64,000 bases of DNA from Dehalococcoidia bacterium (GTDB lineage: Bacteria; Chloroflexota; Dehalococcoidia; Dehalococcoidales; W498), in contig DUEE01000002.1 of assembly GCA_011170285.1 (NCBI GenBank), positions 64,253-128,252 on the forward strand. Direction: 5' to 3'. Positions 31,502-63,695 of this stretch are shown here, piece by piece (within the stretch, counting starts at the first letter, position 1; every line of letters starts with the position of its first letter). Made by a program: the position numbers and the translations under genes. The notes under the pieces were generated by a model that worked only from the letters and a program-made list of their open reading frames with translations, was not told where the DNA came from and did no database searches.

Positions 31502-31577
31502 ATTAGCCTGCAAGATTTAATAGCCAGTACTTATTAGCGTGAACATTATAAAAATGAATGACATTAAAAGTCAAGAT

Positions 31578-31654: not shown

Positions 31655-31753
31655 ATTTAAAAAGCTTCAGTGATTACTTACTAAATGAGCTTAATAAAAT
31701 CGCCAACTATAATACCCTTACCACCTCTTCAAGTCAGGCTAAACTAGGCTAAT

Positions 31754-31975
31754 TCAGGGCAACTGTCTGCCCCTCACTAAAGTAATTCCTGTAGGAACAG
31801 GCACCCCTAATGACTGACGAGCTTCTACATGTGACTTGTTAGCATCTTTGACATTCTCCAAAACTTCCTCATAGGTTTCACCCTGCGTATAGCAACCTTG
31901 AAAAAGTGGAATAGATGCTATATTAAGCCCATCTTCATACTATCCCACTATCACCGTAAACCGATAATCGGGTAT
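31754..31975 (-). pseudogene. Decayed hicB-family antitoxin gene (no ATG/GTG/TTG start, in-frame TAG)
   Basis: Minus-strand frame reads IPDYRFTVIVG*YEDGLNIASIPLFQGCYTQGETYEEVLENVKDANKSHVEA..., a HicB/UPF0150 pattern. Confidence 0.55.
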
Positions 31976-32005
31976 GCTTAATTTAACCTCTCTTAGTAAT
32001 ATAAC

Positions 32006-32185
32006 TTATATCGAGGCAGGAAATCCATCTGCAAGAAGTATTTTAATGTAAGCTTCCGTTGCCTTCGTTATACTCTTTAAAGCTTCTTCACTGGTCTCAC
32101 TCTATGAGACACACCCCTTTAACGCAGGGACATAAGCAACATAGTCCGATTCACTATCCTACTCAGTTATCACCGTGTATGTCAC
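32006..32185 (-). pseudogene. Decayed hicB-family antitoxin gene (two in-frame TAG codons)
   Basis: A GTG start behind AGAGG gives VTYTVITE*DSESDYVAYVPALKGCVS*SETSEEALKSITKATEAYIKILLADGFPASI*. The second TAG sits where intact copies have Q (PGCVSQG). Confidence 0.6.
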
Positions 32186-32208
32186 TTATACCTCTTGCTT
32201 TATATATC

Positions 32209-32282
32209 TGGCTGGGGAAGTAGGATTCGAACCTACCCTGACGGATCCAGAATCCGCTGTCCTACCACTAGACTATTCCCCA
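32209..32282 (-). tRNA. tRNA-Gln (anticodon CTG), CCA encoded
   Basis: TGGGGAATAGTCTAGTGGTAGGACAGCGGATTCTGGATCCGTCAGGGTAGGTTCGAATCCTACTTCCCCAGCCA. It has the U1-A72 pair and G73 discriminator typical of tRNA-Gln. Confidence 0.85.
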
Positions 32283-47346: not shown

Positions 47347-49662
47347 TTGGAAACCGATATGGAGCTAAGAGCCCAGATTAGAGAGTATCTGCAAAATCAG
47401 GGCTATGAAATAACCGAGGGGGCTAAGCTCCCCGGGAAATCAGGTGTTGAGCATATGTTTGACATACTGGCTCAAAGAGACGATGGTTTTACCAACCACA
47501 CCGTTGCCGTCTATATTGCTGCCGGGGGTGATAGGGAAATGGAGGTAGACACTATTTTCAGCTTTGCCAACAAAGCCTATGATGCTGGCATTCATGACCG
47601 AATCCTTGTTGCCACCCCTGAACTTAGTCAGGAGGCGAAACAGTTGGCTCACAAGCAGCGGATAAAGATTATGGATGGAGAACGAATAAAGTCATTATTA
47701 GATTTAGAGCCTGCGCCACCGGTTAAACCAAAGGAGCCCCTTAAGTTTGAAACAAACGAGCAATTAGTGATATCTTTAGCCAATCTGGGCTATAGAGTTG
47801 AGGAGAAAGCCAGAGTTCGAGGCCGGTCAGGAGTTGAATATACCTTTGATATATTGGCTTATATTGACATTGACCAGGTTAGTCACGGGCTAGGTATAGA
47901 TTTCCTGAACGGGGAGAAGGAAGTGAGTCTGGAGCAGATATCATTATTTGATACTAAAGCCTACGATGCCGGCATTGATGATAAAATCATTGTGGTATCA
48001 GCAGGGCTTAGCCCTGAAGCGCGGCAATTTGCCCAGCTACAGCAGATAAAAGTCCTTGAGGCAAACAAAAAAAACCCTTCTCAACCCACGGTGACTGAAG
48101 AAAAACCTGCCCCACCCAAGGAGAACCCGGCTAAGTTAGACGAGTTAGTAGCCCCAGCGGCTAAGTCTATGGTCAAATCTTTGAGGCATGCACCTCAGAC
48201 TGAAACATTGCAATTGATTCCTGAAGTGATGGCGCGAAGATATAATGCCATACCCTTGACTATATCTGATAACACATTAGAGGTGGCTATGGCAGACCCA
48301 ACCGACATCTTTGCCCTGGAGGCTTTCTCTGCCCTGAGCCAGATGATGATTAAGCCTATAGCCGCCAGTGCCAAGGCAGTCAGGGAGGCTATTGACTTTA
48401 ATTATAAAGGCTATGGCGCAATTGAACAGCAGCTTTCTCGTATCTCTACCCCCAGTGACGCAGTTGAAGACAGATTTGACATCAGGGTTGATACTGATGC
48501 CCCTCTGGCTCAGGCTCTTACCCTTATTATTGAAGAGGCAATCAAAGCCCGCTCATCTGACATTCACATTGAGCCTGAAGAGGATAGGTTGAGGATACGC
48601 TATCGTATTGATGGCACTCTTCAGGATATGATGTCTCTGCCTATGACCATACATCCGGCTCTCATTTCTCGAATCAAAATCCTGTCCGATATGAATATTG
48701 CTGACCGTCATCGTCCACAAGATGGTCAGTTTTCTACCGAGGTAAAAGGGCGACAGATAGATGTGCGAGTAGCTACTGCTCCCATTGTTAATGGTGAGAT
48801 GGCCGATTTGCGACTTCTGGACAAGTCAATGGCTACTCTAGGATTATCCGAACTTGGTATGTTACCTTATAGCCTGGAAAAGTATGAGAATGTACTCAAG
48901 ATTCCCTATGGCATGATTCTGATTAGCGGTCCTACCGGAGCCGGTAAGACCACTACCCTATATGCTTCAATCAATTCCCTTGACTGCCTGGGGAGAAACA
49001 TAATTACCATTGAAGACCCGGCAGAGTATCGGTTTAAGGATATCAATCAGATTCAGGTCAATCCTCAAGCTGGCATTACCTTCGCTACTGGCTTGAGGTC
49101 TATACTTCGTCTTGACCCCGATGTAATAATGGTCGGTGAGATACGCGATACCGAAACAGCTAACATATCGGTTCAGGCAGCCTTAACCGGGCATCTGATG
49201 TTATCCTCGGTCCATGCCAACGATGCGGCTGGTGTGCTATCCCGTCTCCTTGACCTGGACATAGAGCCTTTTCTAGTCGCGTCAGCAGTTATTGGTGTTG
49301 TCGCTCAGCGGATGGTGCGCCGCATTTGCCCTGATTGCAGCCGTCCTATAGAAGCGCCGTCAATAGAGAGGATGGCTTATGAAAGAGAAATCGGGGAGAA
49401 ACGGACTGAATTCCTGTATGGCACCGGTTGTCAGTCATGTGCTTATACCGGTTATCTGGGTCGAACGGGAATCTTTGAAATTCTAACTATGAGTGATACT
49501 ATAAGAACAATGCTTCCCAGCCAACCCAGTAGTAGCCAGATTCGTACTCAGGCACTTAAAGAAGGGATGGTAACGATTATGAACGATGGTATGCGTAAGG
49601 TAAAGGCTGATATCACTACCCCGTCTGAAGTGCTGCGTAATGCCTACTCTGGTGACTACTAA
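47347..49662 (+). CDS. pilB: Type IV pilus assembly ATPase (GspE/PilB family) with a novel duplicated N-terminal module
   Basis: 771 aa with T2SSE_N (LQLIPEVMARRYNAIPL..), Walker A GPTGAGKT, DPDVIMVGEIRD, GHLMLSSVHAN and the tetracysteine CPDC..CQSC. Residues 7-240 are two copies of an unassigned module. Confidence 0.9.
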   Translation: METDMELRAQIREYLQNQGYEITEGAKLPGKSGVEHMFDILAQRDDGFTNHTVAVYIAAGGDREMEVDTIFSFANKAYDAGIHDRILVATPELSQEAKQLAHKQRIKIMDGERIKSLLDLEPAPPVKPKEPLKFETNEQLVISLANLGYRVEEKARVRGRSGVEYTFDILAYIDIDQVSHGLGIDFLNGEKEVSLEQISLFDTKAYDAGIDDKIIVVSAGLSPEARQFAQLQQIKVLEANKKNPSQPTVTEEKPAPPKENPAKLDELVAPAAKSMVKSLRHAPQTETLQLIPEVMARRYNAIPLTISDNTLEVAMADPTDIFALEAFSALSQMMIKPIAASAKAVREAIDFNYKGYGAIEQQLSRISTPSDAVEDRFDIRVDTDAPLAQALTLIIEEAIKARSSDIHIEPEEDRLRIRYRIDGTLQDMMSLPMTIHPALISRIKILSDMNIADRHRPQDGQFSTEVKGRQIDVRVATAPIVNGEMADLRLLDKSMATLGLSELGMLPYSLEKYENVLKIPYGMILISGPTGAGKTTTLYASINSLDCLGRNIITIEDPAEYRFKDINQIQVNPQAGITFATGLRSILRLDPDVIMVGEIRDTETANISVQAALTGHLMLSSVHANDAAGVLSRLLDLDIEPFLVASAVIGVVAQRMVRRICPDCSRPIEAPSIERMAYEREIGEKRTEFLYGTGCQSCAYTGYLGRTGIFEILTMSDTIRTMLPSQPSSSQIRTQALKEGMVTIMNDGMRKVKADITTPSEVLRNAYSGDY

Positions 49663-49674
49663 CTTGGAGGTTTA

Positions 49675-50886
49675 ATGGAATTCAATTATGTAGCTTATAC
49701 TGAAGACAAAAGATTGGTCAAAGGTAAACTTTCGGCTACCAGTGAGGAAGCGGCCATCAATCTACTCAGTTATGGTGGCTATCAGGTGGTTAACCTGAAA
49801 TCGTTCACTCCCTTTTTCAATACAGAAAAGCTGGCAGCCTACTTTTCCCGGATACAGCCAAGGGAAATTATAATGTTCTCCCGTCAGTTGGCGTTACTCC
49901 TTGAAACAGGTACTGATATTGTCGCCTCTTTAGAGCTATTACAAAGCCAGGTAACCAATCGCAGCCTAAAAAAGGTAATTGGCGAGGTTGCCTCTGACAT
50001 TCGCGGTGGCAGTTCGTTATCAGCCGCTCTAAGTAAACACCCTCGGGCTTTCCCTGAAATCTACCATCGGACAATAGCTGCTGGTGAGCAGGGCGGCAAT
50101 CTAGACATAGTGCTAAGACAAATGGCTGATCATTTTGAGAGGGGAGTTACCACGGAAAAGAAGATTAAGAATGCCCTGACCTATCCCTTTATTGTTGCCT
50201 TTGTAGCCGTTATAGTGATAGGTATATTGGTTACCTTTGTTTTGCCCACCTTTACTAGCTTATACACTGCATTTGGGTCTGACTTACCCCCGGCAACGCA
50301 GATACTTATTAGTGTGTCTGATTGGTTTAGCCATTACGGGCTTTATATGCTGCTAGCACTACTGGCGGTTGCTGTCTTAGGCTTTGCCTACATCAAAACC
50401 CCAGCCGGTAAATATCAGTGGGACAGTATAATGCTCAGACTACCCGTATTGGGGCGCATTAACCTCCTTGGCGAGCTTTCCCGCTGTTGCCGAATCATAT
50501 CTCTACTATTCAGGGTTGGCTTGCCCTTACCTGAAATCATGACTATGTCTATTCAAGGCAGCAATAATAAGGTTGTGGCTGAGGCTCTAACTGGAATTCA
50601 GCAGGAGTTAGTGAGGGGCGAAGGCTTATCCAAACCTATGGCAAGGAGTAAGCTCTTCCTCCCCTTAATGGTGCAGATGACTGGAGTCGGTGAGGAAACC
50701 GGTAACCTTGACAACACACTAGCCACTGTAGCTGATAGCTATGAGATGGAGGCTGATGATAGGACTAGCTCGGCGGTGGCACTTATTCAACCAGCTATGA
50801 TTTTAATTATCGCCTTGGTAGTTGGTTTTATTGCTGTGTCTATGGTTTCAGCTATGTATTCCATCTATGGGCAGATGGGTGTCTAG
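49675..50886 (+). CDS. pilC: Type IV pilus platform protein (GspF/PilC family)
   Basis: 403 aa with two T2SSF repeats and 3 TM segments. Confidence 0.9.
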   Translation: MEFNYVAYTEDKRLVKGKLSATSEEAAINLLSYGGYQVVNLKSFTPFFNTEKLAAYFSRIQPREIIMFSRQLALLLETGTDIVASLELLQSQVTNRSLKKVIGEVASDIRGGSSLSAALSKHPRAFPEIYHRTIAAGEQGGNLDIVLRQMADHFERGVTTEKKIKNALTYPFIVAFVAVIVIGILVTFVLPTFTSLYTAFGSDLPPATQILISVSDWFSHYGLYMLLALLAVAVLGFAYIKTPAGKYQWDSIMLRLPVLGRINLLGELSRCCRIISLLFRVGLPLPEIMTMSIQGSNNKVVAEALTGIQQELVRGEGLSKPMARSKLFLPLMVQMTGVGEETGNLDNTLATVADSYEMEADDRTSSAVALIQPAMILIIALVVGFIAVSMVSAMYSIYGQMGV

Positions 50887-50898
50887 GAGACGAGACTT

Positions 50899-51321
50899 AT
50901 GAAAAATGAAAAGGGATTCAGCCTGATAGAGGTGCTGGTAGCCCTGGCTTTGCTGGGCATAATTGCGGCTGCCTTTCTCGGTGGTATAGCTACTGCCTCT
51001 AAAGCTGCCCTTATTGCCGATAAGCGAACCAATGCTGAAAGCCTGGCCCGAACTCAGATGGAATATGTCAGGGAGCAGGCTTATAGTATTGCTCCTTGGG
51101 ATTACACGGTCACTTCTTCACAACGTAGTTCAACAGACCAACCATCTTGGTGGAATAATGATAACCCGCCATTGCTTTCTAATAATTATGATGGCTATAC
51201 CGCTAATGTCATCGCCGAGCTTTTACATGATACTGACGATGGCATCCAGCAAATAACTGTAACCGTTAGTCATGGTGGGGAAGCGGTAATTACATTAAAG
51301 AGTTATAGATCAGTGCGATGA
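50899..51321 (+). CDS. Prepilin-type N-terminal cleavage/methylation domain protein (minor pilin)
   Basis: Class III signal MKNEKG/FSLIEVLVALALLGI. Confidence 0.8.
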   Translation: MKNEKGFSLIEVLVALALLGIIAAAFLGGIATASKAALIADKRTNAESLARTQMEYVREQAYSIAPWDYTVTSSQRSSTDQPSWWNNDNPPLLSNNYDGYTANVIAELLHDTDDGIQQITVTVSHGGEAVITLKSYRSVR

Positions 51322-51881
51322 TATTTCACAGGCTAAGGTTGATAAACAAAAACCAGAGGGGCTTTACCTTAATAGAGATATTAGTAGCCCTGGCTATTAC
51401 CGGTCTCATTACCGGGGGTATTACTGGGACTATTTTCCAGGTGATTACCATAGAGGCCCGCACCTCCAATCATATGACCGCAGTCAGACAGGTGCAGAAT
51501 GCTGGCTTCTGGGTCAGTCGCGACGCTACTATGGCTCAGACTGTGGATCTTGAGTGGCAAGGAGAAACCCCGTCAGGTTCAAAGTTTCCTCTTAAATTAA
51601 CCTGGACCGAATGGGATAATAATGAGAAGTATGAGGTTATTTATACCCTGCAAAATATGATTGGCGGACCCAAGCAGCTCCAGAGACAGCATTTGACTTA
51701 CGATGCTGACGGCTATGAAATAGGGAATGAGACGACCATTTTGGCCCAATATATTATCCCTGGCGTAGGCCAGACTCGTCTTGATTTTACCGATGGCAAG
51801 CTTACTCTAACGGTAACTGCCACCGTGGAGAGACAAAGTGAGACCAGAACATATGAGGTTATCCCCAGACCCGGCATGTAA
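51318..51881 (+). CDS. Prepilin-type N-terminal cleavage/methylation domain protein (minor pilin)
   Basis: NQRG/FTLIEILVALAITGL. ATGA overlap with the upstream gene. Confidence 0.75.
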   Translation: MIFHRLRLINKNQRGFTLIEILVALAITGLITGGITGTIFQVITIEARTSNHMTAVRQVQNAGFWVSRDATMAQTVDLEWQGETPSGSKFPLKLTWTEWDNNEKYEVIYTLQNMIGGPKQLQRQHLTYDADGYEIGNETTILAQYIIPGVGQTRLDFTDGKLTLTVTATVERQSETRTYEVIPRPGM

Positions 51882-51906
51882 GGTACAAAGGGAGTATGGT
51901 AGTAAG

Positions 51907-54312
51907 ATGAAAAAAATGTCATTGGAAAAAATAATCAAAAACGAGACGGGACAGGTGATGATTATGGTCCTGATTCTGCTGGTGGTAGGCAGTCTTATCA
52001 TTACCCCGCTCCTGGCTTATGTGAGCACCGGGCTTAATGTTGGACGAGAAGTCTATGAAGAAAAGATGGATAGTTTTTATGCCGCTGACTCTGGGGTTGA
52101 GGACGCCTTATGGCAAATAAAGTATGACAAGCTAACCGAGTTATTCGAATATGATACTCCCGCGTATGACCCGTATGCCTATTATGAATACAGCTCTTCA
52201 AACCAATGGGATTATTACCTATCCGAGCCGATAAATGGCGATAGCGTAAATGTTACCATAGGAAATAGCTGGATTCCTCAGATAACACCAATCCCAGATG
52301 AGGACGAGGCGAGGCTAATTATTGAGGGTATCGACAACGAGCCTCCCAAGCTGATAATAGTTGGTAGTGTCTCAGGGACTTCAGAATATCAAATCAAGAT
52401 ATACTATTACAAAGAGGATACAGATGACCCTTTGGAAGTAGAATCGCTAGGCATATGGCTACCACCCGGCTTCAACTATGATGTAGATGGACAGGAAGAG
52501 GATGACTTTGAGGCTTACCTAGAGGCCAATTTCCCAGGGGATTATTCTAGGAAAATCACCACTCACAATGGTGGTGAAGCTGTAGTCTGGACTTTCAGTC
52601 CCGCTGTTCTCTTTACTGACTTACCAGAGGTTAACCCACAGGACCAGCCAATGGAGAGCATTATCACCTTCCAATTTACTGGTCCATTGGGGCAGAGTCC
52701 CGGAGCCGTTTCCTGGATAGATACCAACTTGGACTTAAGTGGCGGTGCCGATATTACCTATACCTGGGATGCCGATATTAAAGTCTATAAGATTACCTCC
52801 ACGGCTACTGATACTACTACCGATAAGCAAACTATTGTTGAAGCTTATACTGCCAAATGTGAGCTGCGGAAACTGGGCTCAGCCATAGGCGGAGAATACC
52901 GGGCTGCAGGCGCTACCTTAATGATAGACGAGAATCCTTGGCATAAGCCGCCGATAAGAGATACCTTGCTTGGTGCGAGCAGTGTCGAGGTTGACGATAT
53001 CCCGGTTGATGCCGAAGTGGAAAAAGCTTATCTTTACTGGTCAGCCTGGCTAGCGGATACTGGCGAGGAAATACTATTCTGGGACTATTGTACAGACCTT
53101 GATAACGGGAATTGGGATTACGGTAGTGATTGGCACGAATCTGGGTCTTCTACTGCGTTTTACGCGCATCATGATGGTGGTGGCAGAGAACTTAAAATGG
53201 AAAATACGCTGGATTTACACGCTTACGAACCTGAAACGGTTACCGCTTCCTGGCGAAATTGGACATACCGTAGCTGGCCGCAAGGAAGTGATGATTGTCT
53301 TCAATATGGCTTCTATGATAACGGTAGCAGCAGTTGGGACTGGTATAGTGACCTTGGGATCTGCGGAAACATTGGTACGTCTCCAGTAAATTACACTGTT
53401 ACTGTTCCTGATACGTATTTGACCAGTACCTTTAAGATAGGGTTTAGGATACAAAGCTACAGTGATGATAACGAGTATATCTACATAGATAATGTCAAAA
53501 TCTCTGTGCAGACAGGGACGATAGCCGATACCTCAGCTATTTTTAAGATAGATGGTGACCAGGTTTACTTTGATGAAGGTGGTGTTCCCACTAAAGGTGC
53601 TGAGGAGATAACCGCTTCTGAATGGTCACTCCTGGAGAATGAACCTGGTGAGTATTCCTATTCTTGCTATCTGGATGTAACCCAATTGGTCAGGACATTT
53701 TCTGACGAGGGCGATAACGGTAATTACCCCGGTAATGCTACCTACATCGTTGGTGGCGTAGATGGGGACACGGGTAACGAATGGTCCTACGCTGCTTGGT
53801 CGCTGATAATCATCTACTCCAGCCCTGAGACGCACGGGCACCAGCTCTATCTGTATGATGACTTTATCTACTCTGGTATGAACTGCAATGTTGATTTTGA
53901 TGGCGATGGCGAAGAAGGGGGCACGATTAGTGGCTTCTTGGTTCCAGAGCCTATTAGGGACCCTGATACCGGTGAAATCATCGAAGAGAACGCGGCTAAA
54001 CTGACCTGCTTTGTCGGCGAGGGGGATGATTACTATAACGATGATTATCTCAAATTTAATGGGACTCGTCTCTCTGATGGTAAAACCAAATGGGATGTGT
54101 GGAACTCGTGGTCTCTGGGGATGAGCGAGGATGGCATAGATATTGATACCTTTTATGTTACCTGGGCGAGTGACCTATTGAAGCCAGAGGATACATCAGC
54201 TCAGGTGGACTTACCTACGGAGACTGACTCCTGGAACTTAGTCTATATCATCCTCTCCTTCCGCAGTGCGACCACCACCGGTGGCACTATGACCTACCTG
54301 GTGAGGGGATAA
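51907..54312 (+). CDS. Large PilX/TadG-like pilus-associated protein (putative tip or adhesin)
   Basis: ATG 51907 (behind AGGGAG) gives about 801 aa. The N-terminus ETGQVMIMVLILLVVGSLIITPLLAY is a PilX_N-like hydrophobic helix without the GFTLxE signal. The remainder is acidic and Trp/Tyr/Asp-rich. Confidence 0.6.
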   Translation: MKKMSLEKIIKNETGQVMIMVLILLVVGSLIITPLLAYVSTGLNVGREVYEEKMDSFYAADSGVEDALWQIKYDKLTELFEYDTPAYDPYAYYEYSSSNQWDYYLSEPINGDSVNVTIGNSWIPQITPIPDEDEARLIIEGIDNEPPKLIIVGSVSGTSEYQIKIYYYKEDTDDPLEVESLGIWLPPGFNYDVDGQEEDDFEAYLEANFPGDYSRKITTHNGGEAVVWTFSPAVLFTDLPEVNPQDQPMESIITFQFTGPLGQSPGAVSWIDTNLDLSGGADITYTWDADIKVYKITSTATDTTTDKQTIVEAYTAKCELRKLGSAIGGEYRAAGATLMIDENPWHKPPIRDTLLGASSVEVDDIPVDAEVEKAYLYWSAWLADTGEEILFWDYCTDLDNGNWDYGSDWHESGSSTAFYAHHDGGGRELKMENTLDLHAYEPETVTASWRNWTYRSWPQGSDDCLQYGFYDNGSSSWDWYSDLGICGNIGTSPVNYTVTVPDTYLTSTFKIGFRIQSYSDDNEYIYIDNVKISVQTGTIADTSAIFKIDGDQVYFDEGGVPTKGAEEITASEWSLLENEPGEYSYSCYLDVTQLVRTFSDEGDNGNYPGNATYIVGGVDGDTGNEWSYAAWSLIIIYSSPETHGHQLYLYDDFIYSGMNCNVDFDGDGEEGGTISGFLVPEPIRDPDTGEIIEENAAKLTCFVGEGDDYYNDDYLKFNGTRLSDGKTKWDVWNSWSLGMSEDGIDIDTFYVTWASDLLKPEDTSAQVDLPTETDSWNLVYIILSFRSATTTGGTMTYLVRG

Positions 54313-54340
54313 AGGCTTTGTTTATCAATTTAATGTAGCA

Positions 54341-54520
54341 AGGAAAATTTAAAAGTTAAAAGATTAAAAGTTAAAAATAAAAATGAATAAATTTAAAGAC
54401 TTGACCGTTGATGAATTGGAGTATTTAATAGGTAGAAAATGTAAAAGTTGAAAATAAAAATGGGGGAAGATAAAAGATTAAGGGTTAAAATGTAAAAATG
54501 GATAAAAGGGAAAGTAGGAA
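54341..54520 (+). repeat. AT-rich repeat leader copy 1 (TTAAAAG-type short tandem units plus GGAAATGTAAAAGTTAAAAATAAAAATG plus AAAGACTTGACCGTTGATGAATTGGAGTATTTAATAG)
   Basis: Shares blocks with 55031-55163, 55674-55736 and 61543-61612. Ends in TAGGAAATG, whose ATG is the hicB start. Confidence 0.75.
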
Positions 54521-54736
54521 ATGAAGCATATTACCATTACTGCTGAATTGATAAAAGAGGAAGAAGGAGGCTATACCGTTTACTGCCCGGAACTGGATGT
54601 TTATACTCAGGGAGATGACATAGAAGACGCTATCAAAAACCTTAAAGAGGCTGCCGAACTCCACATAGAGGAGTTAGGAATAGAGAACATCAAGCTGAAA
54701 GAAATACAGCGGAGACAGATAGAAATGGTAGTTTAA
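54521..54736 (+). CDS. hicB: HicB-family antitoxin (pair 1)
   Basis: 71 aa with EEEGGYTVYCPELDVYTQGDDIEDAIKNLKEAAELHIE (UPF0150 pattern). Confidence 0.85.
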   Translation: MKHITITAELIKEEEGGYTVYCPELDVYTQGDDIEDAIKNLKEAAELHIEELGIENIKLKEIQRRQIEMVV

Positions 54737-54737
54737 C

Positions 54738-54974
54738 ATGCCTAGACTGCCGAGGATAACAGGAAAGGAATTAGTGAAGGCATTGCAAAAGGAAGGTTTT
54801 GAAATTACACGGCAAAAGGGAAGCCATGTGCAGATGACAAAGTATATTGTTGGTGATAAATTAACCTTTCCTGTTCCCGTTCATGCTGGCAAAATCGTTA
54901 AACAAGGGACTTTAAAGGGGATACTGAGAAAGGCAAACATTCCTGTGGAGCGACTGGATAGACTCCTTAAATGA
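54738..54974 (+). CDS. hicA: HicA-family mRNA interferase toxin (pair 1)
   Basis: 78 aa with ITGKELVKALQKEGFEITRQKGSHVQM. Confidence 0.88.
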   Translation: MPRLPRITGKELVKALQKEGFEITRQKGSHVQMTKYIVGDKLTFPVPVHAGKIVKQGTLKGILRKANIPVERLDRLLK

Positions 54975-55030
54975 TGGGAGATTAACTAGCAATAGGAATA
55001 GTAGATTAGGTTAAGTAAAATAGCCAGGCT

Positions 55031-55163
55031 AGGAAATGTAAAAGCTAAAAATAAAAATGAAAAAATTAGAGTGTTTAATAGAGTAGGAAATGTATAGGAA
55101 ATGTAAAAGTTAAAAATTTATAGACTTAACCATTGATGAATTGGAGTATTTAATAGATAGGAA
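55031..55163 (+). repeat. AT-rich repeat leader copy 2
   Basis: AGGAAATGTAAAAGCTAAAAATAAAAATG...AGGAAATGTAAAAGTTAAAAAT..TAGACTTAACCATTGATGAATTGGAGTATTTAATAGATAGGAAATG (hicB start). Confidence 0.75.
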
Positions 55164-55409
55164 ATGAAGACTTATGTTTTTAGAGTAGTGCTTGAACCTG
55201 ATGAAGGTCGCTGGTTTGCTTATTGCCCAGTCCTTGAAGAAAAGGGTGGAGCTACCTGGGGATATACCAGAGAAGAGGCCTTAAGGAATATAAGGGAGGT
55301 GATTGAAATGACAATCGAAGGCCTCATCGAGCGCGGGGAACCAATCCCTGAGCAACCAGAAATGGAAGTAAGGATTTCCCCTGAGCCCCTGGTGGTTGTT
55401 AATGTATGA
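55164..55409 (+). CDS. hicB: HicB-family antitoxin (pair 2)
   Basis: 81 aa with FRVVLEPDEGRWFAYCPVL...YTREEALRNIREVIEMTIEGL. Confidence 0.85.
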   Translation: MKTYVFRVVLEPDEGRWFAYCPVLEEKGGATWGYTREEALRNIREVIEMTIEGLIERGEPIPEQPEMEVRISPEPLVVVNV

Positions 55410-55663
55410 ATGGACTCGATTACTCCAGGCTCCGTTCTATAACTGCCAGGGAGATAATATCAGCTTTAATTAAAGATGGCTTTTACTTCGAACGACAGTC
55501 AGGTAGTCATCAACAATACTATCACCAGGATGGTAGGAGGGTGACGGTTTCTTTTCACCATCCAGGTGACACCTTCACTCCAAAGATTTTGAAGAGCATG
55601 ATTGAAAAGCAGTCCAAGTGGACATACGAAGACCTTAAGAGGTTGAAACTAATAGAACTTTAA
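55406..55663 (+). CDS. hicA: HicA-family toxin (pair 2)
   Basis: 85 aa with ITAREIISALIKDGFYFERQSGSHQQYYH. ATGA overlap with hicB. Confidence 0.85.
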   Translation: MNGLDYSRLRSITAREIISALIKDGFYFERQSGSHQQYYHQDGRRVTVSFHHPGDTFTPKILKSMIEKQSKWTYEDLKRLKLIEL

Positions 55664-55673
55664 GATGAAATGC

Positions 55674-55736
55674 GGGAAATGTAAAGGTTAAAAATAAAAA
55701 TGACAAAAGTTAAAGACTTAACCATTGATGAGTTGG
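55674..55736 (+). repeat. AT-rich repeat copy 3 (no gene attached)
   Basis: GGGAAATGTAAAGGTTAAAAATAAAAATGACAAAAGTTAAAGACTTAACCATTGATGAGTTGG. Confidence 0.7.
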
Positions 55737-55778
55737 GAATAAAGTTTAAGTTGGGAGCAAGCCCGATTAGTTCTTTGT

Positions 55779-55941
55779 GTAATTGCGAAGCACTAACCCT
55801 CTCGTCATTGCGAGGAGTTCTTCCCAGAAGGACGACGAGGCAATCTCGGAGGGGAGGAAACGGAGTGAGATTACAATGAGATTGCTTCGTCCTTTATCCT
55901 TCACCAAAGGGTGAAGGATGAACCGAAGGACTTGCAATGAC
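55779..55941. repeat. MITE/REP-like nested palindrome, family 'A' subfamily 1 (second copy)
   Basis: Near-identical blocks to 42830-43017 (CTCGTCATTGCGAGGAGTTCTTCCCAGAAGGACGACGAGGCAATCTC ... GAGATTGCTTCGTCCTTTATCCTTCACCAAAGGGTGAAGGATGAACCGAAGGACTTGCAATGAC). Confidence 0.75.
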
Positions 55942-55994
55942 ATTCCTTCTATTGAGAAGGAGCTTTGGAAAACCTTTATGGATGGAGTTAAATA

Positions 55995-56582
55995 ATGAGG
56001 ATAAGTAAAACAGCTAAATTAATTCTGGGTATTGGCGTTTTTATCATCGCCGTGGGCGTGCTGGGTTGGGTCTATCTTGAACAGAGGGGTGAGCAGCAGC
56101 GGCTAGATAATAGCCTATCGTTGGCTCAATCTACCCTGCCTACCGTTACTTCACAAAGGGAGGGTCTGGAAAGCCGACTGACCGAAGTGGATACCAAACT
56201 AGCTGAAGCTGAATTATTGCTTGATGGGACAAAGGCAAGTTTCCCTGAATCGGTGGAGAGCATTGAATACGATGAGACAATATTTGACATTGCTGATGAT
56301 TGTAACCTAAAGATAATCAATCTCACTGCGTCAGAGCCACGCGACAAAGAGGATGAGGATATTACCTACTACATTACCTCGTTTGAAGTAGAAGTGGAGG
56401 GCACGGTGGCTCATATCCTTAATTTCATAGAAACCATAGCTACCAGCGACTTCTCACCCGGTGAAACTAGCTTCGTCAACGCCTATATTGAGGCAGTGAG
56501 TATGTCAATTCCTGAACCTGGAGAAGACGAGCAACCGTCAGCTAATATCAGTCTGGCTATATATGGCTATCGAGGTGAATAA
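55995..56582 (+). CDS. pilO: PilO-like pilus assembly protein
   Basis: 195 aa with an N-terminal TM, a coiled coil and a C-terminal alpha/beta domain, adjacent to pilMN. Assigned from architecture only. Confidence 0.6.
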   Translation: MRISKTAKLILGIGVFIIAVGVLGWVYLEQRGEQQRLDNSLSLAQSTLPTVTSQREGLESRLTEVDTKLAEAELLLDGTKASFPESVESIEYDETIFDIADDCNLKIINLTASEPRDKEDEDITYYITSFEVEVEGTVAHILNFIETIATSDFSPGETSFVNAYIEAVSMSIPEPGEDEQPSANISLAIYGYRGE

Positions 56583-56584
56583 CT

Positions 56585-58045
56585 ATGGCAAAGACAGTTA
56601 CTACACTATTTATTAGAGATGATATCATTAACCTGCTGGTAGTTGAGGGCAAGCAGATAAAGCAGTGGGCTAGACTACCACTGGAGCCGGGTCTGGTTAG
56701 GCAAGGGCTTGTTCTTGATGAAGAACAGGTAGCAGATAAGCTCAAAGAGCTATTCAAGCTGGAGAAGGTAAGCACTGATAAGGTCATCGTTGGTTTGAGC
56801 GGGCACAATTCCCTGTATCGCTTGCTAACTCTGCCTGACTTGCCTGAGGCAGTAGTCGCCGAGGCAGTAAGGCATGAAGCCAGAAGAGTGATTCCAGTGC
56901 CTATGGACGAGGTTTACCTTTCATACCAGCTTGTTCCTGCCCCCGAGAAGGAAAGACATGTTTTCCTGGCTGCTTTCCCCCGCAATTTGGTTGATGCCTT
57001 AATCAGGACGCTAAAGCAGGCAGGCATTGAGCCCTATATTATGGACTTGTCCCCGCTAGCCCTGTGCCGAACCCTGTTTGAGCCCAGAGGTATCATTGTC
57101 AATGCCAAGTTAGACCATCTTAACATTATGGTTATGGAAGATAGGCTGCCCGAAGTAATCCGCAGGCTCACCCTACCCGGCGAGGCTAAATCCTTATCGG
57201 AAAAACTGCCCACTATTATTGAAGAGCTTAATAGAACTGTTGCCTTCTATAATTCTAGCCATCAGGATAAGCCTATAGATTCAACCATGCCTGTATTTGT
57301 CTGCGGTGACTTAGCCGAGACACCGGAGAGCTGGCAACCACTGGTTAGTCAGTTGAGCTATTCATTCTCAGCATTACCATCGCCTCTGGAATCCCCTGAA
57401 GGCTTCAATGCCAACGAGTTTATGGTCAATATCGGACTGGCTCTGAAGGAGCTATCACCTGAGAAGTGGGGGATAAACCTCTCATTGGTCAATTTTAATA
57501 CCTTACCTGATGTTTACCTGTCCAAGCCCCTGCGTGTGTCACAAATCCTTATCCCGGCTGGTATCACCGTCGGCATAGGCTTAGTTATCTTTTTGGCATT
57601 TTTTACTTGGAACGGTATGGCTCATAATAAGGTATTGCGCTCCCAACTGGCACCTATTGAGAGCCAAATTAGCCTTGAGCGCGCAGAAATAGCGACCTTG
57701 CAGGAGCAGATAGGACTGATACAAGCCCAGATTGAGCCAGTAGAAACCACCTACAGTATTCTTAATACTACACTTACCTATCTGGGAGAAAGTCGTGAAG
57801 TTGTTGATGGAGATTTAAGTGAGATTGACCGCTTAAAGCCAACCACAGTAGACTTTACTGAGGTTAATCATACCGGTGATACGGTAACTGTCAGTGGCGT
57901 AGCGCCCGATGAGAAAAAGATTTTTAAATATGCTGCGGATTTAAGAAGCTGTGATAGAAACTTTACAGTTATTATATCATCTATTACTGCGATGAGTGAC
58001 GATGAAGGGTTTTATTTCGATTTTCTCCTGAAACACGACGGGTAG
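56585..58045 (+). CDS. pilM: PilM-PilN fusion protein
   Basis: 486 aa. Residues 1-~300 are an actin-like PilM. A TM helix follows (ILIPAGITVGIGLVIFLAFFTW), then a coiled coil and a PilN-like C-terminal domain. Confidence 0.78.
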   Translation: MAKTVTTLFIRDDIINLLVVEGKQIKQWARLPLEPGLVRQGLVLDEEQVADKLKELFKLEKVSTDKVIVGLSGHNSLYRLLTLPDLPEAVVAEAVRHEARRVIPVPMDEVYLSYQLVPAPEKERHVFLAAFPRNLVDALIRTLKQAGIEPYIMDLSPLALCRTLFEPRGIIVNAKLDHLNIMVMEDRLPEVIRRLTLPGEAKSLSEKLPTIIEELNRTVAFYNSSHQDKPIDSTMPVFVCGDLAETPESWQPLVSQLSYSFSALPSPLESPEGFNANEFMVNIGLALKELSPEKWGINLSLVNFNTLPDVYLSKPLRVSQILIPAGITVGIGLVIFLAFFTWNGMAHNKVLRSQLAPIESQISLERAEIATLQEQIGLIQAQIEPVETTYSILNTTLTYLGESREVVDGDLSEIDRLKPTTVDFTEVNHTGDTVTVSGVAPDEKKIFKYAADLRSCDRNFTVIISSITAMSDDEGFYFDFLLKHDG

Positions 58046-58056
58046 GAGGTTAAGAT

Positions 58057-59127
58057 ATGGATATTTTTTCATTGTTTAATTTAGCCAAATCCCAGGGCGC
58101 TTCTGATTTGCATATGGTTGTCTCCAGTCCGCCGCTACTGCGTATTAATGGCTTTCTACGGGTAGTGGATGGTGTGATGCCGCTAACCGCTGATGACATA
58201 AACCAGGCTTTTCTCCAGATAACCACCCCCGAGGAAAGGGAGGAATTCCAGCAGCATCTGGAGCTTGATTTCGGCTATAGCCTGCCTGAAGTTGGTCACC
58301 TCCGCTGTAACGCTGCCCAACAGCGTGGAGCTATCAGCCTGGCGGTGCGTCTGTTGCCGGCCAAAATACCCACCATAGATGAGCTGGAGTTACCCCAGTT
58401 ATGTAAGGAGTTTGCCTTAAAGCAGCGAGGACTGGCAATAGTTACCGGACCTACTGGCAGTGGTAAAAGCACTACCCTGGCAGCTATGGTAAACCACTTA
58501 AATATGAATGAGAGCCGCCATATAGTTACTATTGAGGATCCTATTGAATATGTCCACCCCACTATTAAATGTGCTGTAACCCAGCGCCAGTTAGGCTCTG
58601 ATACTCTATCTTTTGCCACCGCCCTGAGACATGTCTTAAGGCAGGACCCTGATGTCATTCTGGTGGGTGAGATGAGGGATTTAGATACTGCGGCGGCGGT
58701 GCTTACCATAGCTGAGACCGGGCACTTGATACTATCCACTGGTCATGCCCCCAGCGCGGCTCAATCAATGGAGAGAATAATAGATTTATTTCCACCCCAT
58801 GAGCGCCATCTAGCCCAGACACGGCTAGCTTCTTTACTTATTGGTGTGCTATGTCAGACGCTTGTTCCCCGAGTTGACGGCTCGGGGAGGATAGCTGCCG
58901 TTGAGGTTATGATAGCTAATCCAGCGGTGAAGAACCTCATCCGTGAGGGTAAAATCTACCAGTTACCTAATGTAATTCGCACTCATCGGGATATAGGCAT
59001 GATTTCACTAGACGAAGCCCTGGTTGACCTCTATCTTAAGCGGATAATCAATGGCGAAATCCTGCTTGCCTTCTGCAATGACCGCCAAGAGGTAGAAAAG
59101 CTTATCGGCAAGGTAGTGGTGGTGTAA
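58057..59127 (+). CDS. pilT: Type IV pilus retraction ATPase PilT
   Basis: 356 aa with GASDLHM, Walker A GPTGSGKST, DPDVILVGEMRD and GHLILSTGHA. Confidence 0.92.
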   Translation: MDIFSLFNLAKSQGASDLHMVVSSPPLLRINGFLRVVDGVMPLTADDINQAFLQITTPEEREEFQQHLELDFGYSLPEVGHLRCNAAQQRGAISLAVRLLPAKIPTIDELELPQLCKEFALKQRGLAIVTGPTGSGKSTTLAAMVNHLNMNESRHIVTIEDPIEYVHPTIKCAVTQRQLGSDTLSFATALRHVLRQDPDVILVGEMRDLDTAAAVLTIAETGHLILSTGHAPSAAQSMERIIDLFPPHERHLAQTRLASLLIGVLCQTLVPRVDGSGRIAAVEVMIANPAVKNLIREGKIYQLPNVIRTHRDIGMISLDEALVDLYLKRIINGEILLAFCNDRQEVEKLIGKVVVV

Positions 59128-59374: not shown

Positions 59375-59486
59375 CTGACTGTTGATAGCTGACCGCTGAC
59401 TATTGACTAATGACTAATCACTATTGACTAATGACTATTGATTGCTGAAAGCTATTAGCTATAAGCTATTTGCTGGCTGCTTAGAT
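59375..59486 (+). repeat. Heptanucleotide tract T2 (16 degenerate units, consensus NTGACTA)
   Basis: ctgactg ttgatag ctgaccg ctgacta ttgacta atgacta atcacta ttgacta atgacta ttgattg ctgaaag ctattag ctataag ctatttg ctggctg cttagat. Confidence 0.85.
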
Positions 59487-59579
59487 ATAGCAAAGCCCAG
59501 TGGCGAGGTAGAAGTAAAACCAACTCCCTTATACTCTCCTTTACAATTTAATCACTCCCAGATATACTACCAGTGGAAA

Positions 59580-59807
59580 ATGGGAAGGAAACTTAGAGGC
59601 ATAAGTGGGCAAGAAGCTATCGAAGCTTTTAAGAAATTTGGCTATAGCCAGAGGAAGGGTAAAGGAAGCCATGTAAATCTGGTTAAGCCTGGAAGCAATA
59701 GGCTGACTATACCGCTCCATACTGAATTAAGCGTGGGGTTATTAGCCAATGAAATAAAAAAGGCTGGTTTAACCGTGGAAGAATTTCAAGAGCTTCTAGG
59801 GAGGTGA
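59580..59807 (+). CDS. hicA: HicA-family toxin (pair 3)
   Basis: From M47 of the track ORF: MGRKLRGISGQEAIEAFKKFGYSQRKGKGSHVNLVKPG... The upstream part of the track ORF is a translated heptamer tract. Confidence 0.85.
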   Translation: MGRKLRGISGQEAIEAFKKFGYSQRKGKGSHVNLVKPGSNRLTIPLHTELSVGLLANEIKKAGLTVEEFQELLGR

Positions 59808-59810
59808 CAA

Positions 59811-60035
59811 ATGGAGGCTATGGAATATACAGTGATTTTGCACTGGGATGAAGAATATAACGGTTACTGGATAGAAGTACCGGCATTACCTGGCTGTGTC
59901 TCCCAGGGTAAAAGCAAAGAGGAGGCGTTAGCTAATATCAAAGAAGCTATTGAACTACACCTTGAGTGTTTGGAAGAAGACGGCGAGGTCATACCCAAGG
60001 AAGAATCTTACCGAATAGCTGTAGCTGCCAAATAA
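59811..60035 (+). CDS. hicB: HicB-family antitoxin (pair 3)
   Basis: 74 aa with YTVILHWDEEYNGYWIEVPALPGCVSQGKSKEEALANIKEAIELHLE. Confidence 0.88.
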   Translation: MEAMEYTVILHWDEEYNGYWIEVPALPGCVSQGKSKEEALANIKEAIELHLECLEEDGEVIPKEESYRIAVAAK

Positions 60036-60951: not shown

Positions 60952-61332
60952 TTAGGCTTTGGCGCCTTGAGTTGTCACGCCATCAATCAAAATAGTATAT
61001 GTGTATTCAGTCGGGTTTAGTAGGTACTTTTGCGGGTCATTAACAGCAGTAACACCAGTAGGGTCTAGCTGCGCGGCGGTATAAGTCACTATAACCGGAC
61101 TCATACCGGCAGCTGTCCCCTCAACCATTGCCGCCGTTACTGCTACCAGCACATTAGCCAGTTCCGTCTCAGCCGCCTCTGATTCACCACTGCCAATAAA
61201 CCGGGCGACGGCAGGGATGGCTACTGCTGCCAGGACACCCAGAATAGCTACTACCACCAGCAGCTCAATCAGTGTGAAACCCTTCTCACCATAACGAAAC
61301 GATTTCTTGAACTTACTTATAAACCTCCTCAT
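60952..61332 (-). CDS. pilA: Major type IV pilin candidate (prepilin-type N-terminal domain)
   Basis: 126 aa with leader ...RYGEKG/FTLIELLVVVAILGVLAAVAIP. Strong SD (AAGGAAGGAGG). Small size and a dedicated terminator suggest the major subunit. Confidence 0.82.
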   Translation of the reverse strand: MRRFISKFKKSFRYGEKGFTLIELLVVVAILGVLAAVAIPAVARFIGSGESEAAETELANVLVAVTAAMVEGTAAGMSPVIVTYTAAQLDPTGVTAVNDPQKYLLNPTEYTYTILIDGVTTQGAKA

Positions 61333-61542
61333 TTTTTTCGCCTCCTTCCTTCGTTATTTAAAAGTATTTCCAGTAACTTATTGTATTGTATAGCTCACTT
61401 TCTCTATATTATATTTCCCCCTTTCCTTGTTATTTTAATTTACTTTAGGCAAAGTATAGTTAGTTAAGTTTATGATATAACCTATACCTATTCTAAGTCA
61501 ATAGTCCATTAGTAATAGGTATATTGGTGCCAAACGTCCACA

Positions 61543-61684: not shown

Positions 61685-61909
61685 TTACCCTTTCACCAAC
61701 TGAATAAATTCATCAATACTTATATCAGCGGTGCGAAGTATGGCTCGCATAGTGCCCCTATCTAGCTTATTATGTTTGGGAACGGTGACTGGCCTCCTCC
61801 CGGGACATCTCATCCTGACATGACTTCCCCTGGTTCGAGCTACCCTGTAGCCAATTCGCTCAAGGGCTGAGATGCATTGGTCGCCCGAAACAATCGGTAG
61901 CTCTGGCAT
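61685..61909 (-). CDS. hicA: HicA-family toxin (pair 4)
   Basis: 74 aa with VSGDQCISALERIGYRVARTRGSHVRM. TGATG overlap with hicB. Confidence 0.85.
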   Translation of the reverse strand: MPELPIVSGDQCISALERIGYRVARTRGSHVRMRCPGRRPVTVPKHNKLDRGTMRAILRTADISIDEFIQLVKG

Positions 61910-62139
61910 CAGGTGCCAATCTCAACCTGATCAAGAACATATTCCATGGGTAGAGTCCAGCCTTCCTCTTCCATACTTTCCAGGCAGAGCTCAGCAGCTT
62001 CTTTAATGTTGACTAGAGCCTCCTCTTTAGTCCTCCCCTGTGAAATGCAGCCGGGGACTACTGGTATCTCGGCTACAAAATAACCATCTTCCCCCACTGT
62101 GATAACAACAGGCAGCTTCATTTCTCTTACCTCCCCCAT
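61909..62139 (-). CDS. hicB: HicB-family antitoxin (pair 4)
   Basis: 76 aa with VVITVGEDGYFVAEIPVVPGCISQGRTKEEALVNIKEAAELCLE. Confidence 0.85.
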   Translation of the reverse strand: MGEVREMKLPVVITVGEDGYFVAEIPVVPGCISQGRTKEEALVNIKEAAELCLESMEEEGWTLPMEYVLDQVEIGT

Positions 62140-62245: not shown

Positions 62246-63613
62246 TTAGCTAGATGGCTCCAGATCGTTAACCTCAAAGACCTTGATTTTCTGCCTCTGG
62301 GCAAACTGGCGGGCTTCCTGGGTAAGCCCGGGAACGGCAATAAAGACCTTAGCTAGAATACCTATATCATAAGCCTTATCATCAAAATCAAATACCTTCT
62401 CTAATCCCACCGCCTCCTCAGCTAGCTCAATGCCGACAACAACACGATGAGTAATGATGGCGTCATCCCTGGTAGCCAGTATGTCTATACTGTGTTCTGC
62501 CCCTGACCTGCCTGTAACCTCAGTATTTTCCTCTATTTCGTAGTCTTGCTGCTTTAAGTATTCTATAAACTGTGACTTGGAGTTAAATTCAAAGGGCTCT
62601 CTTTTTACCCCCTCGCTGGGCTTGGGGACACCGCCAGCCAGCACCGTCTCCAAATCCTTAACTCCAAGTACATTTATTCTCTGCAGACTGGCATATTTCT
62701 CCGCCTCTTTGCCTAAAGCGGGGGCAACAACCAGAATTTTATCGTGAATACCTATATCATAGGCTATATCATCAAAGTTAAATATCTCTCCCAGCCCTAT
62801 CTCATCTCCAGCCACCTTAATCCCAATAGCGATATTACAAGTAATAACACCATCATCCCTGGTAGCCAGTATATCTATACTGTGTTTTGCCCCTGACCTG
62901 CCTTTAACCTCTGCATTTTCCTTTACTTCATAGCCGCGCTTTTTCAAAAATTCTATGAGTTGTGATTTGGGCTTAAGTTCAAATTCCAGCCAGCCTCTCT
63001 TTGCCTCATTGAAACGATAAGAATAGACATTTACCTCACTAACACCATCCTCAGCGGTAAGCGACGAGCATTTCAGGCAGCGCCATTTTATTATGGGTAT
63101 GTTGAATACCTCATCGCAATCGCGGCACTTGCGCAGCATCCCCAGGCTACGGTAGTCACTGCCAATAGTCCGTAGCTCCTGCCCACACTTGGGGCATATA
63201 TACCTACCTTTGTGGATAAACTCGGCTTCAAGCCCAACATATTTACAGACAAAGTGCTCAAATACCCTGCCCCGGGGAATATTCCCTGAGCCACACTTAG
63301 GACAACGGGTAGAGGGTCTCAAAACTACCGACAGACACTGGGGACAGTGAATGAACTTATCAAAGAACTCCCTTTTCACTATACCCTTATCAGCCAGTAA
63401 TTCTAAAGTTGATACCACTTCCCCTCCCTTAACGGCTAATACTTGCTCAACTGCTGGATAGATGAAGCCCAGTTCACTGGTGAAATCAAGCTCCGGTCTA
63501 ATATCAACAATCCTCCCCGCTAGCATTTCTGCCCCCAGTCTCATTGCCTTTTCATTCTGCTCAATTTGTGTGGCTGGGGTAGTATTATTTACAGGCTCAT
63601 TTACTTCAGCCAA
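62246..63613 (-). CDS. Multi-zinc-ribbon protein with two C-terminal copies of the PilB N-terminal module
   Basis: 455 aa. Residues ~30-85 are a possible winged-helix region. Residues 90-182 carry five CxxC pairs (C90/93, C104/107, C140/143, C163/166, C179/182). Residues 216-322 and 346-452 are the module GY/DYE[VI].EN.EV.GRSGA.HSIDILATRDD...AYDIGI..K[IV]...P.L..EA..[YF]A..Q.I.V. Confidence 0.7.
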   Translation of the reverse strand: MAEVNEPVNNTTPATQIEQNEKAMRLGAEMLAGRIVDIRPELDFTSELGFIYPAVEQVLAVKGGEVVSTLELLADKGIVKREFFDKFIHCPQCLSVVLRPSTRCPKCGSGNIPRGRVFEHFVCKYVGLEAEFIHKGRYICPKCGQELRTIGSDYRSLGMLRKCRDCDEVFNIPIIKWRCLKCSSLTAEDGVSEVNVYSYRFNEAKRGWLEFELKPKSQLIEFLKKRGYEVKENAEVKGRSGAKHSIDILATRDDGVITCNIAIGIKVAGDEIGLGEIFNFDDIAYDIGIHDKILVVAPALGKEAEKYASLQRINVLGVKDLETVLAGGVPKPSEGVKREPFEFNSKSQFIEYLKQQDYEIEENTEVTGRSGAEHSIDILATRDDAIITHRVVVGIELAEEAVGLEKVFDFDDKAYDIGILAKVFIAVPGLTQEARQFAQRQKIKVFEVNDLEPSS

Positions 63614-63695
63614 GCTCTTCCTCCATACAATTTATTACATAACTCATTAAAAGAAGTATAATTAGCCAAATAGTAAAAGTCAATAGGGTATTAGT

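Follow-up and report, generated by a model that had tools for sequence, protein, structure and literature searches.

Here we describe a 455-residue protein encoded on the minus strand, at 62246-63613, of a 64,000-nt stretch of a Dehalococcoidia genome (contig DUEE01000002.1, positions 64,253 to 128,252; hereafter the window), and place it in the cytoplasm as a conserved part of the type IVa pilus (T4aP) system of Dehalococcoidia. The protein joins a full-length TackOD1 domain, which is a zinc (Zn)-ribbon domain, to two modules with a degenerate restriction-endonuclease (REase) fold, and the same module pair forms the N-terminus of the assembly ATPase PilB encoded in the same locus. We regard this anatomy and the linkage to pilus genes as real with very high confidence; our tentative proposal, to which we give slightly less than an even chance, is that the protein acts post-translationally as an adaptor or regulator of PilB, a role suggested by the shared domains and the gene neighbourhood.

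A TackOD1 domain followed by two nuclease-fold modules

62246 to 63613, minus strand: gene for the TackOD1 protein with two degenerate REase-fold modules (TTG start, stop codon at 62246-62248, 455 aa)
63014 to 63556, minus strand: TackOD1 domain, aa 20-200, comprising an acidic winged-helix-like N-terminal part (about aa 13-89) and a triple Zn-ribbon region
63068 to 63346, minus strand: Cys/His cluster, aa 90-182, five CxxC pairs plus H120xxC123, giving 12 ligands
62633 to 62989, minus strand: module 1, aa 209-327, Mrr_cat-like PD-(D/E)xK fold without the catalytic Lys
62249 to 62599, minus strand: module 2, aa 339-455, same fold as module 1 and 53% identical to it

Six metagenome contigs, of which the longest measures 202 kb, encode the identical 455-aa protein. 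Pfam assigns its N-terminal part to TackOD1 (PF18551; 136.4 bits against a cut-off of 32, E=1.1e-39) over model positions 7-187/188, that is, to the full-length domain, bearing out the suggestion of TackOD1 in an earlier note on this DNA, which had also given the open reading frame (ORF) and all twelve Cys/His ligands exactly (C90/C93, C104/C107, H120/C123, C140/C143, C163/C166, C179/C182). This ligand pattern is the published TackOD1 signature of 11 conserved Cys in five CXXC motifs and one HXXC motif (PMC5847659). All twelve positions are invariant in 35 homologues of 64-81% identity and stay so on inclusion of two distant bacterial TackOD1 proteins and an archaeal one; these predicted ligands would be enough for three Zn sites, with a presumptive pairing of ligands into sites. 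The winged-helix-like part and both modules are acidic, the Zn region alone is basic, and the isoelectric point (pI) of the whole protein is 5.4. Pfam found no REC receiver domain in the 455-aa protein, although relatives at 41-44% identity have one; the protein likewise gave no match to PilZ, GGDEF/EAL or MshEN, has no NCBIfam family, and matches none of the PADLOC defence models (0 families).

Modelled alone by AlphaFold2 (AF2), TackOD1 reaches a confident predicted local distance difference test score (pLDDT) of 88.8, with 82.6 for the whole protein. Its N-terminal element order, with helices at 13-31, 53-59 and 64-75 followed by a beta hairpin at 79-103, is winged-helix-like, and STLELLADKGIVKREFF is located here, at aa 68-84. 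The earlier note had set this region apart as an N-terminal part that could be a winged helix: the topology holds up weakly, while the separateness does not, as the region sits inside the Pfam TackOD1 model (aa 20-200) and is no domain of its own. Against the PDB, Foldseek returned no significant match for the TackOD1-alone model (best E=0.085). Its weak matches were to MCM, TFIIE-alpha, MarR-type winged helix-turn-helix (wHTH) proteins and YfgJ, those to MarR-type proteins and TFIIE-alpha having a probability of at most 0.35 and E>0.5. The topology is compatible with a wHTH; helix 64-76 and the region as a whole are acidic. The full-length model drew REase-fold matches for the modules only and nothing for TackOD1, and a PDB profile search added marginal Zn-ribbon matches that serve as leads only (MCM N-terminal domain, E=0.02; PolD DP2; S27e). 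What TackOD1 has in common with TFIIE-alpha/TFE, MarR-type proteins and the MCM N-terminal Zn/OB domain, according to these weak structural and profile matches, is a winged-helix-like topology followed by one or more Zn ribbons; it is set apart from them by matches that are non-significant throughout (E 0.02-1.5, probability at most 0.35) and by the acidity of its would-be DNA-contact helix.

The module pair is shared with PilB

47347 to 49662, plus strand: pilB, 771 aa, with modules, MshEN/GSPII part and T2SSE ATPase
47347 to 47706, plus strand: PilB module 1, aa 1-120, found with the module hidden Markov model (HMM) and BLASTP
47734 to 48084, plus strand: PilB module 2, aa 130-246, found in the same way
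PilB aa 282-353, plus strand: MshEN/GSPII part
PilB aa 383-764, plus strand: T2SSE ATPase

BLASTP aligns aa 209-454 of the TackOD1 protein colinearly with aa 1-245 of PilB (41% identity, E=5e-55). Because aligning the modules of the two proteins out of register gives only 29% identity, the shared unit is the tandem pair. The module HMM detects two copies in the TackOD1 protein, two in PilB and zero in any other ORF of the window; by these comparisons, the sharing is far beyond chance, and the observation in the earlier note that the PilB N-terminus and this protein have a module in common stands. Its description of that domain as private to the two proteins must be given up, since thaumarchaeal proteins and REC-TackOD1 response regulators regularly have the module after TackOD1 as well.

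PilB begins to match the canonical type IV-A PilB model only at model position 65 (PilB aa 282 onward); in place of the usual extreme N-terminus stand the two REase-fold modules and a Pro/Lys-rich linker (aa 1-281, 47347-48190). The MshEN match in PilB covers only the C-terminal part of the MshEN domain. Neither a neighbour-joining tree of the modules nor their pairwise identities settled whether PilB gained the tandem once or repeatedly.

Pfam Mrr_cat (PF04471) matches two stretches in the C-terminal half of the TackOD1 protein (54.4 bits against a cut-off of 21), and in Foldseek the modules match AF1548 (1y88, E=1.8e-5), NucS/EndoMS, Cdn1/Can2, MspJI, AspBHI and the Rpb5 N-terminal domain; the first module of PilB also matches the 'inactive REase' family NA-iREase1. 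The first catalytic Asp is retained (D247 in module 1, D377 in module 2). The (D/E/Q) position of the nuclease motif is an invariant Gly in the TackOD1 protein family, and the Lys position holds K or E in module 1, E in module 2, A, Y, E or V in archaeal copies and A or L in PilB copies. Judged by these residues, the module is a catalytically degenerate REase-fold (Mrr_cat) domain. At the former active site every module class, whether TackOD1-fused tandem, archaeal single-copy or PilB-fused, conserves the signature G-[RK]-S-G-x-x-H-x-x-D ... K-x-x-D, while the catalytic Lys position varies freely. The module thus resembles Mrr_cat and the inactive PD-(D/E)xK domains (NA-iREase1, Rpb5 N-terminal domain, AF1548) in its fold and in the loss of the canonical catalytic Lys, and departs from them in its own signature, its tandem occurrence and its tie to TackOD1 and PilB.

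Linkage to pilus genes across Dehalococcoidia

A word-indexed search returned 922 protein clusters, the best 120 of which share the architecture at 451-482 aa; the named members among these 120 come from Dehalococcoidia/Chloroflexi metagenome-assembled genomes (MAGs). A genome scan with one genome per species gave 50 loci, all from Dehalococcoidia/Chloroflexota and with 43-71% identity, onto which we mapped the pilus proteins of the window; individual loci are given L numbers below, and counts refer to the 47 with at least 3 kb of flanking sequence. Pilus genes lie near the TackOD1 gene in 44 of these 47. A pilin gene follows downstream on the same strand in 30 of the 37 loci with enough downstream sequence, mostly 150-450 nt away, and the prepilin peptidase gene pilD lies within 1.5 kb upstream in 26 of the 41 with enough upstream sequence, divergent wherever its orientation was recorded. 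The usual position of the TackOD1 gene is therefore between pilD and the major pilin gene. In a second arrangement pilM/N, pilT, the TackOD1 gene and the pilin gene all lie on one strand (L040-43, L050), and in a third, seen in about eight lineages, the TackOD1 gene sits just upstream of pilB on the same strand, PilB being short in most of these. As judged from gene order, these genomes show a linkage of the TackOD1 gene to pilus genes that is tight and ancient, and the functional tie to the pilus ATPase that the earlier note had proposed is strongly supported by it.

Homologues do not always accompany a module-bearing pilB, a question which that note had raised: in L039, L047, L048, L065, L073, L074 and L080 (about six lineages) the TackOD1 gene is followed on the same strand, after a gap of 10-170 nt, by a gene for a short PilB of 523-528 aa with zero modules. 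By contrast with these short forms, the long, module-bearing PilB occurs in the window, L004, L005, L025 and L063, and in L067 and L069-71 (two lineages) the TackOD1 gene is followed after 0.7-2.5 kb by a gene for a 790-aa PilB with two modules. (L065, L073, L074 and L080, as well as L067 and L069-71, came from a metagenome scan with the L039 protein.) The module pair is thus carried either by the TackOD1 protein alone, beside pilB, or by both proteins, a split/fused 'Rosetta stone' pattern, and this pattern points to PilB as the functional partner.

Of the three short-PilB loci from the genome scan, two, L039 (11360-11374) and L048 (3339-3362), have the TackOD1 gene and pilB in one reading frame, separated only by one or more stop codons and 9-18 nt. 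We considered whether each pair is a single mis-called fusion gene and rejected this, given real stop codons (two in L048) and a Shine-Dalgarno-like motif before the L048 pilB. Loss of the stop would yield a TackOD1-module-PilB fusion, and no such fusion was present among the proteins listed in the searches run. The MAG JBHOQK01, from which L048 comes, holds two paralogues: that of L048, directly upstream of pilB, is apparently shortened at its N-terminus (382 aa, GTG start), and that of L044 is full-length, with no pilus gene within 10 kb. As a separate observation, three genes are conserved beside pilD, outside the window, coding for a 7TM-GAF-GGDEF-HD(GYP) protein, an enzyme of the GH3 family and an HTH_45 protein of 89 aa (L001, 1410-8658; L004, L005, L062, L063 and about 24 genome loci).

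The wider TackOD1 family

An exhaustive search of 50%-identity representatives found 2346 that match the TackOD1 protein. They comprise (i) REC-(Zn ribbon)-TackOD1 response regulators of 626-983 aa with two or three modules, (ii) proteins of about 315-350 aa from Nitrososphaerales/Thaumarchaeota in which TackOD1 is followed by one module, (iii) PilB proteins of about 790-800 aa with an N-terminal module pair, (iv) module pairs of about 250 aa, which may be fragments, and (v) TackOD1 without a module. REC-TackOD1-module response regulators account for 88 clusters in Dehalococcoidia. At three loci encoding such REC-fused proteins (L059-L061, 10001-13900), the gene comes after those for a GAF histidine kinase and an OmpR-type regulator and before that for a processive family 2 glycosyltransferase (GT2; chitin/cellulose-synthase-like), with no pilus locus. 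Since REC-TackOD1 is here encoded after a separate OmpR-type DNA-binding regulator, TackOD1 is an output domain and probably not a second DNA binder. TackOD1 genes also stand directly upstream of GT2 genes in an archaeon (L056, 5622-8073) and in another bacterium (L057/58; L057, 7968-10730), and the representative P0190 is a fusion of UDP-glucose dehydrogenase with TackOD1. A word-indexed search with the archaeal homologue P0159 returned 3 proteins only, and the archaeal gene context is that of the single locus L056, beside GT2; an HTH_45 gene lies two genes away from the TackOD1 gene there.

TackOD1/arCOG06883 has been reported as a group of uncharacterised Zn-ribbon proteins found mostly in thaumarchaeal type IV pilus (T4P) loci (PMC4858521, PMC5847659). 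The earlier note knew of no described T4P regulator of this architecture, which has to be qualified to the extent that the family itself was already on record in such loci, without a characterised function; the REase-fold module is not mentioned in PMC4858521, PMC5847659 or the supplement searched, and we found no description of the Dehalococcoidia TackOD1-protein family in the literature searched. Because arCOG06883 has been reported in thaumarchaeal T4P loci, the pilus link spans two domains of life whose ATPases are non-orthologous. The thaumarchaeal proteins (PF18551; Galperin et al. 2018, Makarova et al. 2016) share with ours the Zn-ribbon domain with five CXXC and one HXXC motifs, the association with T4P loci, the existence of stand-alone and REC-fused forms and, in proteins of about 320 aa, one copy of the REase-fold module after TackOD1. 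They differ from the Dehalococcoidia form in host and machine, a bacterial T4aP (PilB/C/M/N/T, N_methyl pilins) taking the place of a FlaI-type system, and in that the latter has two modules instead of one and a module pair on the ATPase as well.

The pilus locus of the window and its pilin promoters

49675 to 50886, plus strand: pilC
50899 to 51881, plus strand: two minor pilin genes
within the pilus operon 49675 to 59127, plus strand: genes for an 824-aa and a 195-aa protein, large or of unknown function
56585 to 58045, plus strand: pilM/N fusion
58057 to 59127, plus strand: pilT
60952 to 61332, minus strand: prepilin (N_methyl), 126 aa, downstream of the TackOD1 gene on the same strand, as in most relatives
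61472 to 61501, minus strand: sigma70-like promoter match of the pilin gene, upstream of the 126-aa prepilin gene
61685 to 62139, minus strand: toxin-antitoxin pair HicA (61685-61909) and HicB (61909-62139), between the TackOD1 gene and the pilin gene
63655 to 63683, minus strand: sigma70-like promoter match TTGACT-17-TATACT, about 40 nt upstream of the TackOD1 start codon, by consensus match only

The window contains a Dehalococcoidia-type bacterial type IVa pilus locus, whose plus strand also carries a gene for a LuxR-type response regulator. Only 387 nt of the window remain upstream of the TackOD1 gene; on the source contig the locus goes on with a further small N_methyl pilin gene, then divergent pilD and, beyond it, genes for an HTH_45 protein, a GH3 enzyme and a 7TM-GAF-GGDEF-HD(GYP) protein. 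The TackOD1 gene, which the earlier note had put at the far edge of the pilus locus, accordingly lies in its middle, with a pilin gene and pilD further upstream.

The pilin genes downstream of the TackOD1 gene (L006-L055) share a sigma70-like promoter, CTATTGAC-N17-TATAAT/TATCAT, 70-130 nt before their start codons. A sigma54-type promoter was also sought upstream of the pilin genes and none was found, the sigma70-like one being conserved instead. The promoter is followed by a palindrome whose symmetry is kept while its sequence changes between lineages (ACCTAACAATAGTTAGGT; GTAACCTAAGGTTAC; AAGTGACAATAGTTACTT), and which may be either a hairpin in the 5' untranslated region or an operator.

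HicAB is absent from between the TackOD1 and pilin genes in L004 and most other loci. Four HicA/HicB-type pairs lie within the pilus locus of the window (61685-62139, minus strand; 59442-60035, plus strand; about 54521-54974; and 55164-55663), and because relatives such as L004 are without them there, these scattered pairs look like recent insertions. Elsewhere in the window, a ribosomal protein L10 leader (27629-27770, minus strand) and a cluster of five tRNA genes (31186-32282, minus strand) are ordinary, unrelated features.

A proposed PilB adaptor and its alternatives

If the TackOD1 protein is an adaptor of PilB, the tandem module would be its PilB-linked part. In lineages whose PilB is short, the module would be supplied in trans by the protein, whose gene immediately precedes pilB in one operon; in those with a long PilB, such as that of the window, the ATPase has a module copy of its own, and the two proteins might make like-with-like module contacts, or compete for or share one partner or ligand. 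The Zn-ribbon TackOD1 domain would then serve as effector or as a second binding surface. We favour such an adaptor over a transcription factor for pilin genes because the protein is acidic at the place where a winged helix would be expected to bind DNA, because its REC-fused relatives adjoin a separate DNA-binding regulator, because some relatives are fused or glued to enzymes, and because the gene heads a pilB-pilC operon in several lineages. Several observations weigh against it. The TackOD1 gene of the window lies 13 kb from pilB, on the opposite strand and adjoining a pilin gene, an arrangement that fits a transcription factor equally well, and L021, L044 and L045 have no pilus gene within 10 kb. 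The TackOD1-module unit is also encoded next to GT2 synthase genes at loci that lack a PilB in the vicinity, and the module is therefore not a PilB-specific docking device. At 39-48% identity, PilB modules resemble the TackOD1-protein modules of their own genome no more closely than those of others, and so give no sign of co-evolving pairs. Finally, the polar signature at the former active site points, as far as residue conservation can tell, to a ligand pocket and not to a protein interface.

The protein might instead regulate pilin transcription, its winged-helix-like part and basic Zn region binding DNA at the pilin promoter or palindrome and its modules sensing or binding a partner so as to report on the status of the motor. 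We consider this unlikely, even though the same-strand pilin gene 120-450 nt downstream in 30 of 37 loci, with a conserved sigma70-like promoter of its own and then a conserved palindrome placed like an operator, is what such a factor would lead one to expect, and the weak Foldseek matches of the winged-helix-like N-terminus to MarR-type regulators and TFIIE-alpha, the net charge of +4.6 on the Zn region and the weak profile match to the MCM Zn/OB DNA-binding N-terminal domain (E=0.02) point the same way. The putative recognition helix (GEVVSTLELLADK) is, however, acidic, within a winged-helix-like part whose mean net charge is -2.8 (35 homologues) and a protein of pI 5.4, and the fold matches of TackOD1 are all non-significant. 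REC-fused relatives share an operon with a bona fide OmpR-type DNA-binding regulator, and in about eight lineages the TackOD1 gene comes first in a pilB-pilC operon with no pilin gene directly downstream. Moreover, the palindrome, with its symmetry preserved through changes of sequence, is at least as compatible with an mRNA hairpin as with an operator, and the conserved HTH_45 protein and the LuxR-type response regulator of the locus are more conventional candidates for the task. Similarly improbable, in our estimate, is a shared sensing of one ligand without contact, in which the module pocket would bind a phosphate-containing small molecule, such as a nucleotide second messenger, or nucleic acid, with PilB and the TackOD1 protein responding independently. 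The retention of G-[RK]-S-G-x-x-H-x-x-D ... K-x-x-D in all module classes, with the catalytic Lys position free to vary, speaks for a pocket of this kind, as does a 7TM-GAF-GGDEF-HD(GYP) gene conserved a few genes away in most loci. PilB furthermore lacks the first 64 or so positions of the canonical model and has the modules in their place; the corresponding N-terminal region of MshE-type ATPases binds cyclic di-GMP (c-di-GMP). Thaumarchaea, on the other hand, carry the same TackOD1-module proteins, and no use of c-di-GMP by them is known; in short-PilB lineages the TackOD1 gene stays glued to pilB, which physical cooperation would explain better; and the known signalling REase-fold domains, Can2 and Cdn1 (top Foldseek matches), are effectors rather than sensors.

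That the protein is an active nuclease or DNA-processing factor, serving for example in restriction and defence or in the handling of DNA imported by the pilus, would accord with an above-threshold Mrr_cat match, with the REase-fold Foldseek matches (AF1548, NucS/EndoMS, MspJI, AspBHI) and with the conserved first catalytic Asp (D247; D377 in module 2). Yet the Lys position of (D/E)xK is degenerate and the acidic position before it always Gly, and NA-iREase1 ('inactive REase') is a further match of one PilB module; no PADLOC defence family matches the protein, and its gene neighbours are pilus or glycosyltransferase genes, with no methyltransferase or defence context. An active nuclease or defence role is unlikely, and we would give it very little credence indeed.

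Broader significance

The adaptor proposed here for PilB has a parallel, in logic only, in the PilZ/FimX/MshEN regulators. These are small cytoplasmic regulators or N-terminal extensions of ATPases, and act on PilB-family ATPases and on GT2 synthases. Like them, TackOD1 proteins occur both in pilus loci and beside exopolysaccharide synthase genes; unlike them, the TackOD1 protein has no PilZ, GGDEF/EAL or MshEN_N motif, and there is no relationship in sequence or fold. The TackOD1-module unit is also found on a REC domain or beside a GT2 synthase, and the family therefore looks like a signal-output device for membrane machines that export polymers. It is possible, and we would still rather doubt it, that TackOD1 with degenerate REase modules makes up a previously unrecognised signal-output class of Thaumarchaeota and Chloroflexota that controls PilB and GT2 synthases post-translationally. 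As input it would take either a ligand in the ex-nuclease pocket or the phosphorylation of a receiver domain fused to it, and PilB would have captured, as its N-terminal module pair, a copy of the sensor or docking unit of the regulator itself.

TackOD1 was already known as a Pfam family whose function is uncharacterised. To this our analysis adds the bacterial, T4aP-embedded form with two modules, the recognition that TackOD1 is regularly accompanied by a degenerate REase module in both archaea and bacteria, the capture of that module by PilB with natural split and fused states, and the parallel linkage of TackOD1 to GT2. For a domain that is widespread, with neither an assigned function nor a similar solved structure, the Dehalococcoidia pilus locus is the clearest handle so far, given a fixed position in the pilus cluster and a piece of the protein that is fused to the PilB motor, the split and fused versions indicating PilB as partner. 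Although the hosts are uncultured, recombinant proteins make the proposal of a PilB adaptor directly approachable in vitro. Its confirmation would bring a new type of pilus-motor regulator to a monoderm phylum that is dominant in the environment, and would suggest a common principle of control for pili and exopolysaccharide synthases in archaea and Chloroflexota.

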